Made by a program: the position numbers
Part shown: in pieces, positions 25,037 through 31,000 of the stretch
Position numbering within the stretch: position 1 is the first letter of the stretch
Layout of the letters: each line of letters opens with the position of its first letter
Source: Thermodesulfobacteriota bacterium
GTDB lineage: Bacteria > Desulfobacterota > Desulfobacteria > Desulfobacterales > C00003060
Direction: 5' to 3'
Assembly (NCBI GenBank): GCA_034189385.1
Contig: JAXHVD010000012.1
Location: 1-64,000, forward strand
DNA: 64,000 nucleotides

Positions 25037-28000
25037 TAGAGAAGGTGACAAGAAAACCTGTGGGCTGTGGCGGTTTCTTTATCACTGCACGGCCTATTGG
25101 GGCAATGAGGGGATGAAGGGACTTCAGTCCCTTCATCCCAGATTTTTCCCGCTCTTCAAAGCGTTGAGAATACTTGCTGCTGCCTCCTCAATGGCCTTGG
25201 CAGACATATCAATGATCCGCCATCGTGGATTCTCTTCGTAAATCCGCTCACACCAATCGATCTCATCTGCTATCTTAAGGGGGTCTGCGTACTTTGCATA
25301 GGGGGTAAGACCCAAGTGCTTCAATCTCGACTCTCTAACCTTGACTAGGCTCTCAACGCTTATGAGGAGGCCAAGAACCTTACTCTGATCTACCTCAAAC
25401 AGCTGCTCCGGGGGATCCAGGTCCGGATGAAGGGGCACATTGGCCACCTTCCATCCCTGGTTGGCCAGGTAGGTAGAGAGAGGCGTTTTGCCTGTTCGAG
25501 AAAGACCTACCAGGATCAGGTCAGCATGTTTTAGACCCTGGGGCATCTTCCCGTCGTCGTGTTTCACCGCAAAATTAATCGCGTCAATCCGGCAATAGTA
25601 GTCTTCGTCTAGGATATATTGTCTTCCAGGAATCGCCATCGGCTTTTCGCCCAAAAACATGGACAGCTGCACAATGAAATCGCCAATCACATCAATAGCC
25701 TTTATCCCTCGGCGTTCGGCTTCCCCTATCAAGAAATCCCTCGAACGTGACCGGAGCACGGTAAAGGCCACCAAGGCTTTGTCTTCTGCTGCCTTCTTCG
25801 CAATACTCTCCAGCTGCTGTTTGTTTCTCACCTGGAAGAATGTCTTGACCTCGATGTTTCCCCCGCTAAACTGCGCTAGAGATGCCCTGGCAATCTTGCT
25901 GATGGTCTCTCCGGTCATTTCTCCTACCAGGTAAATGATCTTGGATTTGGAAGGACGCTTCTTTGGTGTGCCCCTTTTTCTTTTCATACGCCCTCCCACA
26001 AGAAAAATGTGCTCTTCCCTTGGCGGACCAGTCGTCCCCCTGGGTATTCAGAAGCCAAGGGTTTTACAATGAGGCAAGCCCCCATCTCTTTCGCCAGTCT
26101 TTTCATATAAGGAACCAGCTCAACAGGTGGCCGCAAGGCGTAGATCAACTCCACTCCGGCATATATCGGCTTGTTCGGCTCTGTGATATCATCTACGATT
26201 ACCTTTAGCCCCCTGTATTGAAACGGCTTGATGTCAGTAGCAAAAACCCGCAATCCCCCATCCACAAGGGCCAAGGCCAAATCCGGGAAATGGCCGATTC
26301 CGACTTCCACGCCATACTTGTATCTGTGAACGATGTAGTCCACGAGCCCCTTGCAACTGCTTCGCACAGATCAATCCTCCACAAACCGCCAGAAAAAGAT
26401 ATCCTTCATGGGAATCTTGGCGATCCTGGGATTCGTTACCATGCCCAGGGCATTTTCCATCTGAATCTTTTTTTCCACCATGGCCACGCCTCGTCTGGAT
26501 GATACGACAGTGTCAGGGAGTACGGATATGGACGTACAGCCGCATCGAATCATGAACTCAAGATAGTCGGGATACACGCTGGGGGCCTGCCCGCAGATCG
26601 ACGTTGTCACACCATGCTTTTTGCACACGGCAATGGTATATGCGATGGCCCGAAGCACACCCAGGTTTCGCTCATCGTAGAGGTCCTGAACAGAGACATC
26701 GTTTCTATCCACGCCAAGGACGAGCATGGTCAAATCGTTGGTTCCGAAACTGATGCCGTCTATACCCTCCTTGCAGAATTCTTCTATCATGAAGCAGGCA
26801 CTGGGAACCTCCACCATGATCCAGAGCTGAAAATCAGCGTTCGCGCGGTGATCCAATCCCTCTTCACGCATGATCTGAACGGCCTGCCTGAAAACCCGGC
26901 GTGTTCGCACAAACGGGAGCATGACCCAGACGTTGTTGAGCCCCATGGTGTCTCTGACCTTTTGTATGGCCTGCAATTCAAGCCTGAAGATATCATCCTC
27001 CTTTATGTACCTGTGTTGCCCCCTGTAGCCGATCATGGGATTGGGGCCCACGTGGTCTCGTTCATATTTCTCACCGCCAGGCAATTCGAGAAATTCGTCC
27101 GGTTTGAAATCCAGGAATCTATATATCACGGGCTTGGGGAAAAAAGCCTCGGCCACTTGTCCGATCCCGCGGGCAAAGGTGTCGATCATGACCTGATTCC
27201 CACCCTCTTCCAACAGGAGTCTGGGGTGCTTGCCGATACTCAACATCAAGTGTTCCGCACGGAGTAAGCCCACGCCATCGGCATTGGTTTCCCGTGCAAC
27301 CTTTTCGGCGATTTCAGGAACCGCCAGATTTACATACACCTTGGTGCCTGTAGTCATCTGAGCCGAAAAGTCGACAGGAACAACGGCTGTCTTTTCAGCC
27401 TCTCTCTGAGCAATGGCCCCCTTGAAAACAAGGCCTCTCTGGCCTTCCACCGTCACCGTCTGTCCATCTTTTAAAACCTTTGTCGCGTTCTCGCATCCAA
27501 CCACAGCCGGAACGCCCAGTTCCCTGCTCACGATGGCCGCATGGCAGGTCTTGCCGCCCAGATCGGTGACCACGGCCGAGGCGATCTTCATGGCCGGGAC
27601 CCAATCTGGCGTCGTCATCTCTGTGACCAGAATGTCGCCTTCTTGAAAGGATGAAATCTCCTTCACATCCAGGATAACCTTGACCTTGCCCGACCCTCTG
27701 CCCGGGCTGACGCCCATTCCCCGCACCAGTATATCTTCTTCCATGAAAGCGCCCCCTTCCTCTTGCTTCACTGTCCCTTGGTCTCCATGAACGGTCTCAG
27801 GCCTAGCTTGAAGAATAAAGGTCCGTCCATCAGCGTCCACAGCCCACTCTATGTCCTGGGCAACCCCGTAATGCTTCTCAATCTGAAGGCCGTATTCTGC
27901 TATCCGCTGAATAGCATCATCGCTCAACGCCGGCCTTTCTTGCAGTTTCTTTGGAACGGTGAGCCACTTGGTGCTGCCCTTTTTGTCAGACACAATCTGT

Positions 28001-31000
28001 CTATCTTTCTTCACCACATGTTTGTCCACTATGCCCAGGGACGCCTTATCCACCACAAACTCATCCGGTGTGACCTGGCCGCTGACAACGGCTTCACCTA
28101 GGCCCCAGGAGGCATTGATGATCATCTTGTCTGTTTCACCGCTTACGGGCTCAATAGTAAACATCACGCCCGATGCCTCAGAAAAGACCAGCTCCTGCAC
28201 GGCCACACTGATCAGGACTTCTTCGTGGGAAAAGCCCTTTTCTTGTCGATAGACAATCGCCCTGGGTGTGAAGAGAGAACTCCAACACTGTTTCACGCTC
28301 TTAAGAAGGCTTTTTCGGGTCACATTTAAAAAGGTATCCTGCTGGCCTGCGAAGCTGGCCCCTGGAAGATCCTCAGCCGTTGCCGAAGACCGTACGGCCA
28401 CGGCCACGCTCTTCTTTCCGACTTGTTTGCAGAGGGCCTGATAGGCGTCCAATATGGCCTTTTCCATCTTCTTTGGCATGGATTGGCCTTCCACGTATTT
28501 TCTGATTTTTCGGGACACCTCCTGCAGTAATTCCATGTCCCCTACGTCAACACCTGAAAGCATTTCCTGAATCTTCTTGCCTGCCCCTGTCTTTTCTAGA
28601 AAGAACTGGTATGCTTGGGCAGACACGGCAAAACCATTGGGGACAGGCACTCCGATCTTTCCCAATAGCTCACCTAGGTTAGCGCATTTACCACCAACGA
28701 GCGGGATATCTCCTTTCCCCAGATCCTTAAACCACAGTACGAAACCGTTCTTCCTCATGGCCTCATCATCTCCTTTTCCCTATTTGCCATTCATCACACG
28801 ATTTTGTTTGCAATTTCCTCTATAGAGGCGTTCGTCACGTCCACGACCTGAATACCATCTATCTGTTTGAATATGCCCTGGCAGTGTGCCAGCTCCTCCC
28901 TGATACGGTTTATGTCCGTGTAATCCGTTGCCCCTGCATATTTGAGCCTCTTCTCCCTGATAAAGGCCAACCTTTCGGGCGCAATGGTAAGGCCTACCTT
29001 TCGCCGTTTCAGCGTAAAGATCTTTTTTGGAGGATTCACCTCTGGAATGATGGGGACATTGGCAACCTTAAGGCTGTTGTTGCATGACAGGTAAAGGCTT
29101 GTTGGTGTCTTTGAAGTCCTGGAAACGCCAAGGAGAATGAGATCGGCCTTGCCGAGGCTCTTTATCCCTTGACCGTCGTCATGTCGTAACGTGAAGTCGA
29201 TGGCCTCAGCAAGACGGATGGATTCCTCTCCCAACCCTTTAAACAAGCCCGGACGAAAAGCGGGAAGCATGTTCCAGAGTCTCCCCATCCGTTCCAAAAG
29301 GGGGCCAAGAAGATCGATGGTGTAGACCTGTCTTTTGACTTTTTCTTCAGAAATCCATGTGCGGAGCTCTTGAGAGACCAAGGAGTAGATGACGATAGCC
29401 TCAAGCTTCTCAGCTCTGGCCAAGACATTTTCTATTTGATCTTTCCTCTTGATGTAGGGGAATCTCTTGAAGATGGGGCTGATGGGCTTAAACTGCACCA
29501 AGACGGCGCTGATGACTCTTTCAGCGGTAAGGCCGGTAGCGTCAGAAACGATGAAGACGTAGACCTTTCTCTTGGGCGGGCTCATGGAATCGCGAAGCTT
29601 ACCTCCCCGAAAAGGCTATGACAGGCCCTTTCAATAAGGACATCCCACCAAAAGAACACCACGAAGGCATCTGCACAAACCGTTTGTGGCAGAGCGAAAA
29701 ACGTAATAGGTAGTAGTTCCCCTATCACGACAGTGAATAGTTATCAACAGTTTTCGGACAAACCTTCAGGTTAGAAGGGTCCGAGCCTCTTGCGCCTTTG
29801 GCGAGGCCGTTATCAGCTTCTTAGTGCTTGATTTGTTAGCAGTCCTATGCTATTAGGAGGCCCGGATCAGACGTTACTCGCAGTTGATCCAGACGGCCAA
29901 CAGTGCCTCAAATTTTTCTGGAAAGGAGCGTCAGCCATGAAAGCCGGTCATAAGTACGTCTATTTCTTCGGAGGTGGCAAAGCGGATGGGACTGCCAAGA
30001 TGAAGAATCTCCTGGGTGGGAAGGGTGCCAACATAGCTGAGATGGTTAACCTCGGCATGCCTGTTCCGCCCGGATTCACCCTTACAACAGAGGCGTGCAA
30101 CGAGTTCTACGCCAGGAAACGCAAATACCCGCCAGGCCTAAAGAAGCAGGTTGATGCCAACCTGACGAAAGTCGAGAGGCTCATGAAGCAGAGATTCGGA
30201 GACCCCAAAGATCCGCTTCTTTTCAGCGTCCGCTCCGGCGCCCGGGCTTCCATGCCCGGTATGATGGAAACGGTGCTCAACGTAGGGCTGACTTCAAAGA
30301 CAATTCCGACGCTCATCAAGAAAACAGGAAATCCTCGATTTGTTTATGACGCCTACCGACGGCTCATTGCTATGTACTCTGACGTGGTCATGGAAAAGGC
30401 GGCAGGCATAGAACCGGAAGAAGGCAAGGGAATCCGGGCCCAGTTGGAGGGTCTCATCGACAAGGTGAAAGCAAAGAAGGGGTATGACACGGACCTGGAC
30501 CTTACTGCCGACGACTGGAAATCGCTCTGCACGCAGTTTAAGAAAACCGTCAAGAAAGTCCTTGGGAAACCCTTTCCAGATGATCCCATGGCACAAATGT
30601 GGGGTGCTATTGATGCGGTTTTCCTGTCATGGTTCGGCAAACGGGCTGTGTCATACCGGCGCATTGAGGGACTCCCTGATGATTGGGGAACTGCCGTAAA
30701 TGTCCAGACCATGGTCTTTGGCAACATGGGCGACGACTGTGCCACAGGGGTTGCCTTCACTCGCAACCCGGCCACGGGAGATAATAACTTTTACGGAGAA
30801 TGGCTCATCAACGCCCAGGGCGAAGATGTGGTGGCCGGTATTCGTACCCCCTTTGCCATCAACAATGTTTCTAAAGTGGCCACGAACAAACATTTGCCAA
30901 CGCTGCAAGGTTCCATGCCCAAGCTTTACAAGCAACTTGACGGCTTCAGACGCAAGCTGGACAAGCATTACAGGGACATGCAAGATATAGAATTCACCAT

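Follow-up and report, generated by a model that had tools for sequence, protein, structure and literature searches.

This locus, within a window of 64,000 nt of a Thermodesulfobacteriota contig, raises the question of what a protein of the archaeal family UPF0146 does in a bacterial operon for PEP synthase (PEPS) and its presumed regulators. The operon lies on the minus strand. PEPS (26371–28758, 795 aa; TIGR01418, 944 bits against a cut-off of 739.75) is followed by the UPF0146 gene (25984–26367, 127 aa from a GTG start; PF03686, 91.8 bits against a cut-off of 26) and by a PSRP gene, here termed PSRP_dn (25133–25987, 284 aa from the ATG at 25987). A second PSRP gene, PSRP_up, is located upstream of PEPS (28794–29585, minus strand, 263 aa), and a divergent pyruvate phosphate dikinase (PPDK) gene occupies 29847–32675 on the plus strand (TIGR01828, 1280 bits against a cut-off of 843). 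Read from the sequence, the PEPS stop codon TGA is separated from the GTG start of UPF0146 by the 3 nt spacer TCT, and an ATGA marks a 4 nt overlap between the UPF0146 stop and the ATG of PSRP_dn. An earlier note had described this arrangement, and its reading frames, family assignments, spacer and overlap, as well as the second PSRP and the divergent PPDK, are all borne out. In the mechanical list of reading frames, PSRP_dn starts further upstream, at a GTG (25999). The genome as a whole encodes one UPF0146 protein and two PSRPs.

Bacterial loci were surveyed through UPF0146, which yielded 36 of them. PEPS is located directly upstream of UPF0146 in 34; one further locus starts at a contig edge, and one (L049) lacks PEPS, a truncated UPF0146 standing there together with PSRP_dn. 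UPF0146 was confirmed in 13 of the 36 other genomes of the genus, and the order PEPS-UPF0146-PSRP is found at all 13 of these loci. Start/stop overlaps like those of the window recur in both bacterial phyla. When loci were anchored on PEPS instead, UPF0146 was present in 28 of 30 (class of G064). Within the genus and order of the window, PEPS at least 69 % identical to that of the window occur only in 14 genomes with UPF0146 and in two contig-edge cases, other PEPS being 42–47 % identical. Likewise, in a sample of 201 genomes from the same phylum, this type of PEPS was found only in G423, which has UPF0146. Some of the host bacteria are described as sediment bacteria.

The same pairing extends into the archaea. 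All 15 Bathyarchaeia loci that could be assessed have UPF0146 after a PEPS of the same subfamily as that of the window; an upstream PEPS on the same strand was seen in 9 of 9 loci found by pattern and in 10 of 11 found by HMM, the eleventh being at a contig edge. In three loci the order is PEPS-UPF0146 (L056, L059 and L076), with PPDK next in the first two, and an archaeal metagenome contig (L282) carries enolase-UPF0146-PEPS. Of 61 Thermoproteota genomes, the 8 with UPF0146 are exactly the 8 with a PEPS 57–58 % identical to that of the window, the other 35 PEPS being 47–51 % identical. Thus the earlier note's claim that the PEPS link is specific to the bacterial copies does not hold. PF03618, the PSRP family, was sought in two Bathyarchaeia genomes (G061 and G063) and not found. 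Because Bathyarchaeia keep the pairing with PEPS, two of their genomes showing no PSRP, the companion conserved with UPF0146 is PEPS rather than PSRP.

The window PEPS contains the PPDK_N, PEP-utilizers and PEP-utilizers_C domains and scores 971 bits against NF005057. Its T404-C405-H406 motif does not vary among 40 sequences, and the Thr and His of this T-x-H phospho-carrier motif presumably have the same roles as in the Escherichia coli enzyme. Co-phylogeny with UPF0146 is evident in the PEPS tree, in which UPF0146-linked archaeal and bacterial PEPS form one clade and the window PEPS groups with those of Bathyarchaeia (SH-aLRT 96–99). Bathyarchaeia branch first, followed by L282, L253 and, last, the bacterial clade (supports 99, 99 and 100). 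Judged by these sequences, the window PEPS belongs to a distinct subfamily, common to the UPF0146-linked archaea. The clade fits a transfer in which archaea passed the PEPS-UPF0146 pair to Nitrospirota and Desulfobacterota. The pair would be archaeal, occurring in Bathyarchaeia and at least one other archaeal lineage, and would have entered bacteria as a unit, Nitrospirota first and Desulfobacterota from there, with the PSRP genes, found in bacteria only, placed around it. Bacterial UPF0146 proteins are 31–42 % identical to Bathyarchaeial and 29–44 % identical to Halobacteriota copies, and so are no closer to the former; the UPF0146 tree leaves either group as a candidate sister of the bacterial clade.

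What the protein might do is suggested by its fold. The PF03686 match spans profile positions 17–124 of 129. An AlphaFold2 model (pLDDT 92, pTM 0.88) superposes on MTH_1000 of Methanothermobacter (2K4M), a member of PF03686, with a VIA Z of 18.8 and an rmsd of 1.5 over 124 aligned residues at 35 % identity. The 49 other entries among the 50 VIA matches listed, with Z of 11.5–13.0 over 121–126 of the 127 residues, are nearly all titled SAM-dependent methyltransferases. Foldseek also places 2K4M first (E 6e-11, TM 0.88), followed mostly by SAM-methyltransferases, with 35 matches at E≤1e-3. One entry that is no methyltransferase is the epimerase 3DHN, 38th in the Foldseek list. DSSP assigns seven strands to the model and few helices (residues 3–15, 29–36, 66–69 and 82–95), none of them between strands 2 and 3 or after strand 5. 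The seven-stranded core of class-I SAM-methyltransferases such as FtsJ/RrmJ (1EIZ), PrmA (2NXN) and HemK (1VQ1) superposes over nearly the whole of UPF0146, although the protein is far smaller than the matches listed (180–390 aa) and has no substrate-recognition domain. An hhalign comparison with PrmC of this genome aligned only strands 1 and 2 and was not significant (E 0.22).

The class-I fold binds SAM at the C-terminal ends of strands 1–4; its motif I consists of an acidic residue and then G-x-G-x-G after strand 1, and a further acidic residue ends strand 2. In the model and alignment of UPF0146 the conserved residues are located at the C-terminal ends of the same four strands, placing conserved acidic and glycine residues at the usual cofactor positions. 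In 40 bacterial and Bathyarchaeial sequences, E21, G25, D45, D59, Y69, Y76 and E83 never change; E21-x-G23-x-G25 and D45 vary little if at all, with H, R or S instead of the third glycine of motif I. It is this stretch that the hhalign comparison with PrmC aligned, without significance. The acidic residue and G-x-G after strand 1, the Asp ending strand 2 and the conserved R79-P80-P81-x-E83 after strand 4 are what we take to be matches to active methyltransferases. By its fold, UPF0146 is a minimal, seven-stranded protein of the class-I SAM-methyltransferase kind. The E-x-G-x-G, TD, DD and RPP-x-E motifs are shared with MTH_1000 (phmmer E 2.3e-12), whose structure 2K4M is titled as a structural-genomics entry. 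Differences are the shorter length of the bacterial clade (127 aa against 130–160 aa) and its place in a PEPS/PSRP operon. The window protein scores 64.4 bits against NF003165 (PRK04148), the archaeal UPF0146 equivalog, below the cut-off of 151; the bacterial clade is therefore a divergent subfamily and no equivalog of the archaeal model. With dN/dS of 0.09–0.23 in 11 pairs, the gene is functional and under purifying selection. No paper in the library searched mentions UPF0146, PF03686, COG1255 or MTH1000.

Prediction of a PEPS-UPF0146 complex gave a score of 0.51 (runs 0.51, 0.53 and 0.49), against 0.00 for the best of three controls, and was graded as weak support. The runs share at least 93 % of contacts, with a partner pLDDT of at least 85. 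Of 157 solved complexes 116 attained the mark, as did 2 of 215 mismatched pairs, counts that are rough here, where own alignments were used. A score of 0.51 falls in the band called weak; at or below 0.60 only 18 of the 157 solved complexes are found, together with both passing mismatches. The best 150 of 265 family representatives include no UPF0146-PEPS fusion.

The best reading is that UPF0146 belongs functionally to this particular PEPS subfamily, and not primarily to PSRP. Tentatively, it may be a SAM-dependent modifier or accessory subunit of the enzyme, a proposal we regard as plausible though still short of probable. UPF0146 would be made in step with PEPS by translational coupling, bind SAM at the conserved E21-x-G23-x-G25, D45 and D59-D60 site, and dock on PEPS. 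There it could methylate a PEPS side chain or report the SAM/SAH state to the enzyme; either route could tune PEPS activity or its susceptibility to PSRP_dn. A bolder version, which we consider unlikely as a whole, makes UPF0146 the smallest working class-I methyltransferase, which methylates or, via SAM/SAH, gates a distinct PEPS clade: an archaeal-born post-translational control of gluconeogenic PEP formation that moved to bacteria with the enzyme and acts alongside the PSRP phospho-switch. If true, this would be the first functional assignment, as a protein-modifying enzyme, for an archaeal family that in Halobacteriota lies beside a protein N-acetyltransferase. PEPS as a lasting companion across archaea and bacteria hints at an unstudied control of PEP synthase.

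UPF0146 could instead be a passenger, an archaeal, methyltransferase-like housekeeping protein whose target lies outside PEP metabolism; it would have lain beside PEPS in the donor by chance, been co-transferred, and been kept as useful otherwise or as hard to excise. This explanation is somewhat unlikely, but several observations speak for it. In Halobacteriota, where UPF0146 is called near-universal (108 of 151 genomes), only 1 of 40 loci has a PEPS within 6 kb, and the usual neighbours are a RimI-type GNAT (25 of 40) and archaemetzincin (11 of 40). These neighbours being mostly other than PEPS, the general role of the family is not PEPS-specific. In the Bathyarchaeia locus L072 an unrelated gene for the Hjc resolvase stands between PEPS and UPF0146; a similarly sized gap separates the two genes in most other Bathyarchaeia loci. 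Three bacterial operons (L147/G741, L174/G733 and L205/G851) have the order PSRP_up-PEPS-PSRP_dn, with PEPS of the same clade and no UPF0146, and PF03686 was not found elsewhere in G741 and G733; UPF0146 is therefore dispensable for this PEPS. It also evolves faster than PEPS, whose dN/dS is 0.045–0.117. A passenger would, however, hardly account for an adjacency to this PEPS clade that survives three archaeal gene orders and two bacterial phyla with start/stop overlaps, for retention in nearly all PEPS-anchored loci, for purifying selection, or for an interface predicted with PEPS and with none of the controls, weakly supported as it is.

The earlier note had predicted that bacterial UPF0146 acts with PSRP, of which the downstream paralogue would be the specific candidate. 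Both PSRPs match PF03618 over their full length (PSRP_dn 285.4 and PSRP_up 272.4 bits, against a cut-off of 23.5) and exceed the NF003742 cut-off of 225 (279.5 and 272.2 bits), but fall under that of the E. coli-type PpsR equivalog (127 and 172 against 350); their cross-matches are 33–38 % identical (~35 %). The operon association itself is real and conserved in two bacterial phyla: PSRP_dn, overlapped by UPF0146 in the window, directly follows it in 34 of the 36 bacterial loci (the other two run off the contig) and at every one of the 13 loci of the genus. G001 retains PEPS-UPF0146-PSRP_dn while PSRP_up and PPDK are both absent, and in L049 it is PSRP_dn that accompanies the truncated UPF0146. 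However, the conserved partner is PEPS and not PSRP, the pairing with PEPS being found in archaea without PSRP (as judged from two Bathyarchaeia genomes). In the three operons without UPF0146, PSRP_dn directly follows PEPS, and PSRP-based regulation thus needs no UPF0146. The review PMC8100219 gives DUF299, the PSRP family, as absent from archaea; UPF0146 has its home there. PSRP/PDRP control of PEPS and PPDK shares with UPF0146 the operon and the presumed target enzyme, but the two are unrelated in fold and family. We regard a partnership of bacterial UPF0146 with PSRP_dn as improbable.

Quite doubtful, too, is that UPF0146 is no methyltransferase and acts as a small allosteric subunit, its Rossmann-like core binding an adenine nucleotide or SAM/SAH as a sensor only or serving as a pseudo-enzyme scaffold: the 127 residues with few helices and no substrate-binding extension, the loss in bacteria of a segment after strand 2 that is present in archaeal copies (130–160 aa), and three proteins (P0094, P0167 and P0218) that join a UPF0146 domain to another, canonical methyltransferase domain in the manner of enzyme/pseudo-enzyme pairs would agree with it, but the titles of the structural matches and the motif-like residues after strands 1, 2 and 4 argue for a methyltransferase. 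A SAM-dependent modifier or accessory subunit of PEPS remains the preferred reading.

Two SAM-cycle genes identified by Pfam match, MetK (22429–23640) and AhcY (23783–25039), both on the plus strand, converge on the operon. A terminator-like hairpin on the plus strand (25110–25139, 13 bp stem and then a T-run), a consensus match only, is located between AhcY and the operon end and overlaps the PSRP_dn stop. MetK/AhcY adjoin many loci titled Desulfobacterales or Deltaproteobacteria and are in the flank of only one Nitrospirota locus (L037). Their membership in the operon is doubtful; the adjacency is read as lineage synteny and is a weak hint at most. No PPDK adjacency was seen among the UPF0146-found loci titled Nitrospirota, and PPDK is adjacent in six loci (L019, L020, L021, L025, L040 and L046), whose titles all give Desulfobacterales or Deltaproteobacteria.

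The gene layout described in the earlier note, PSRP–UPF0146–PEPS–PSRP with PPDK beside it, is borne out by the five genes of the window. The minus strand carries the upstream copy of the regulatory kinase/pyrophosphorylase of PF03618/DUF299 (PSRP_up, 28794–29585), PEP synthase (PEPS, 26371–28758), UPF0146 (25984–26367, with a GTG start) and the downstream PSRP copy (PSRP_dn, 25133–25987), while pyruvate phosphate dikinase (PPDK, 29847–32675) is on the plus strand. As read from the sequence, 3 nt separate the PEPS stop from the UPF0146 start, and UPF0146 overlaps PSRP_dn by the nucleotides ATGA. 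The whole genome contains one UPF0146 gene and two PSRP genes. Ordinary housekeeping genes flank the operon, encoding a KsgA-type rRNA dimethylase (20170–21057), PanC (21165–22022), PanD (22076–22432), MetK (22429–23640) and an AsmA/YhdP-like protein of 1112 aa (34139–37477). MetK and AhcY point convergently at the operon and were considered as a hint of a SAM cycle; they adjoin many loci titled as Desulfobacterales or Deltaproteobacteria, but only one of the Nitrospirota loci (L037), and the arrangement was taken as synteny. No RNA data sets are listed among the 20 sequencing runs that contain the stretch.

UPF0146 is a family with a solved structure and no assigned function, and a literature search by family name and identifiers found no paper on it. 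The family is small (at E ≤1e-3 it accounts for 265 representatives out of 1.84 billion), and the member in the window scores 64.4 bits, under the NCBIfam equivalog cut-off of 151. Its nearest solved relative is MTH_1000 (2K4M; E 2.3e-12). An AlphaFold2 model from a 25-sequence alignment (pLDDT 92, pTM 0.88) contains seven strands and just four helices. Foldseek ranks 2K4M first for this model, followed mostly by SAM-dependent methyltransferases, and VIA returns Z 18.8 for 2K4M and Z 11.5–13.0 for 49 other entries, which almost without exception are titled SAM-methyltransferases, with superposition over nearly the full length. Residues E21, G25, D45, D59, Y69, Y76 and E83 are invariant across 40 bacterial and Bathyarchaeial sequences, with G23, D60, P64 and R79-P80-P81 nearly so. 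In the model the conserved residues map to the ends of strands 1–4, the site at which the methyltransferase fold binds SAM. A segment that follows strand 2 in the archaeal copies is missing from the bacterial clade. Alignment of the family with PrmC of this genome by hhalign is not significant (E 0.22 over 35 columns), and look-alikes in the ESM Atlas, all at or below 0.81 where 0.9 was asked for, fall in clusters with methyltransferase names and are no more than leads.

On the account best supported here, UPF0146 would be a minimal, SAM-binding protein of the methyltransferase fold that partners one PEPS subfamily, acting on it by methylation or by SAM/SAH-dependent modulation. A rival reading is a non-catalytic sensor, with which the domain fusions may be compatible; the titles of the structural neighbours speak against it. 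A search for longer family members found one fused protein. Among the best 150 of the 265 profile matches, three (P0094, P0167, P0218) join the UPF0146 domain to a second, canonical methyltransferase domain, one of them also carrying HATPase_c, a fourth (P0226) joins it to a HAD hydrolase, and four proteins of ~280 aa have an N-terminal half without any Pfam match; no fusion to PEPS or PSRP occurs among these 150.

A direct contact between UPF0146 and PEPS is hinted at by complex prediction. Full-length PEPS and UPF0146, with a 40-row alignment each, score 0.51 (runs of 0.51, 0.53 and 0.49) against 0.00 for the best control; the runs share at least 93 % of contacts, with a partner pLDDT of at least 85. 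The verdict of the tool is weak support. In calibration 116 of 157 solved complexes attain the mark, as do 2 of 215 mismatches, and scores of 0.60 or less comprise only 18 of the 157 plus both passing mismatches, counts that hold only roughly here as our own alignments were used for prediction. We know of no solved PEPS–UPF0146 complex.

Scanning species genomes yielded 46 UPF0146 loci, 36 of them bacterial, 9 from Bathyarchaeia and 1 from Methanothrix; the bacterial records are titled Desulfobacterales, Syntrophaceae, Deltaproteobacteria, Nitrospirota or Thermodesulfovibrionia. Of the 36 bacterial loci, 34 carry PEPS immediately upstream of UPF0146; L053 starts at a contig edge, and L049 is devoid of PEPS. 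PSRP_dn follows UPF0146 directly in 34/36, and the other two (L028, L043) end at a contig edge. In L049 (1542–2787), from a Nitrospirota MAG, an N-terminally short UPF0146 of 114 aa (profile positions 51–125) has a PAC2-family gene upstream and is followed by PSRP_dn; the full operon of the same MAG is on another contig (L035). Within the genus, the order PEPS–UPF0146–PSRP_dn is identical in 13/13 loci, and contig edges account for the four genomes that have PSRP and no UPF0146 match, with the final 35 UPF0146 residues still visible at the edge in one of them. One genome (G001) keeps PEPS–UPF0146–PSRP_dn and lacks both PSRP_up and PPDK, a pattern suggesting that, in the lineage of the window, PSRP_up serves PPDK; however, another (G906) has PSRP_up and no PPDK over the cut-off. 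In L038, L050 and L053, PEPS, PSRP_up, UPF0146, AhcY and MetK are split into several adjacent tBLASTn pieces, which look like frameshifts of the assembly-error kind.

The link to PEPS had been regarded as specific to the bacterial copies, a view that the Bathyarchaeia contradict. In each of the nine Bathyarchaeial loci that the scan gave, a PEPS on the same strand precedes UPF0146. A separate, independent HMM search covered 201 Thermoproteota genomes and detected UPF0146 in 12; of the 11 loci retrieved from it, PEPS is upstream in 10 and the remaining one lies at a contig start. Four loci are common to the two sets, and once these are merged PEPS is upstream of UPF0146 in 15/15 assessable distinct loci. 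The order is PEPS–UPF0146 in L056, L059 and L076, with PPDK next in the first two, and PEPS–Hjc–UPF0146 in L072. A metagenome locus (L282, 1240–5558) has enolase–UPF0146–PEPS on one strand, and the contig is assigned to archaea because it carries Dph2 and L10e genes; its PEPS is in two ORFs (3125–3538 and 3555–5558), split by a frameshift or by an error of assembly.

These loci also bear on the proposal of the earlier note that bacterial UPF0146 acts with PSRP on PEPS and PPDK, which would make it a PSRP cofactor. The proposal is supported in part. The operon association behind it holds, with PEPS and PSRP_dn each adjacent in 34/36 bacterial loci. The partner is more probably PEPS than PSRP: PSRP was not found in either of two genomes searched from Bathyarchaeia, a group in which the link persists. 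According to the review PMC8100219, the bacterial PSRP phospho-switch is the sole known post-translational control of PEPS, archaea are without DUF299, and nothing is known of post-translational modification of archaeal PEP synthases.

The window PEPS is 54–58 % identical to UPF0146-linked Bathyarchaeial PEPS, 47–51 % to other Thermoproteota PEPS, 42–51 % to those of Halobacteriota and 42–47 % to the remaining PEPS from its genus and order. In a 61-genome Thermoproteota sample, the eight genomes with UPF0146 coincide exactly with the eight whose PEPS score highest. Trees of PEPS and UPF0146 were built by a quick search under LG+G4, and other bacterial PEPS were sparsely sampled, with three from the genus and order of the window alongside archaeal ones. 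In the PPDK-rooted PEPS tree, the linked PEPS of archaea and bacteria fall into a single clade (SH-aLRT 96); with L282 and a further locus (L253) added, the branching is Bathyarchaeia, L282, L253 and bacteria (supports 99, 99 and 100). The operon PEPS of Desulfobacterota group together as a clade (support 99) inside the Nitrospirota sequences, a nesting which suggests that Desulfobacterota acquired the whole operon from Nitrospirota. The UPF0146 tree has a single bacterial clade (support 98–99) whose archaeal sister group is not resolved, a clade of bacteria and L282 not being rejected (p-AU 0.69). On the best-supported account PEPS and UPF0146 were inherited together from archaea, and the pair would document inter-domain transfer of metabolic genes, with bacterial regulators now alongside. 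PEP synthase is the enzyme at the pyruvate/PEP branch point; its conserved, co-inherited association, for one subfamily in both domains, with UPF0146 offers a concrete hypothesis testable with two to three recombinant proteins. The other PEPS type of the genus and order (L140–L142) groups with Halobacteriota L138 and L139 (support 100), and looks like a second, separate inter-domain PEPS transfer.

The association is not universal. In a PEPS-anchored sample of the class of G064, UPF0146 is present in 28/30 loci; L205, of this class, has PSRP_up–PEPS–PSRP_dn without it. The other exception is a lone second PEPS of the window type (L193, G065:C60; 72 % identical) that has no PSRP or UPF0146 beside it, in a genome with the full operon elsewhere (L047). 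In a sample of the phylum Nitrospirota, G741 and G733 have the operon without UPF0146, and PF03686 was not found anywhere in either genome. In the bacterial PEPS clade the three UPF0146-less operons are the first to branch off. They are read as losses, given that UPF0146 is present in two successive archaeal outgroups; later gain is the alternative. Such absences might be expected of a passenger gene, but a dN/dS of 0.09–0.23 for UPF0146 (11 pairs; 0.045–0.117 for PEPS) indicates a gene maintained by selection.

PEPS residue 578 (N-P-M-I-G-Y-R-G) is Tyr in 100/100 UPF0146-adjacent tBLASTn rows, which are redundant, and F, W or M in 51/52 other PEPS; 3/3 independent pairs agree in direction (sign test p 0.25). 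As a marker of the link Tyr was rejected, the form being common. A scan of metagenome contigs gave at least 118 stretches with the Tyr form, and in 80 loci examined, many with short flanks, 77 matches belong to PEPS-like genes and 3 to PPDK, with UPF0146 in just one locus (L282). Tyr578 is at most necessary, not sufficient, for the link.

UPF0146 is present in 108/151 Halobacteriota genomes, but a PEPS gene lies within 6 kb of it in just one of 40 loci, which counts against a tight link. In these loci (L081–L120) a RimI-type GNAT of ~150 aa directly adjoins UPF0146 in 25/40, usually with UPF0058 beyond, and TIGR01575 is above cut-off in 3/3 GNATs tested. Archaemetzincin (peptidase M54) adjoins UPF0146 in 11/40. 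Both of these neighbours act on proteins.
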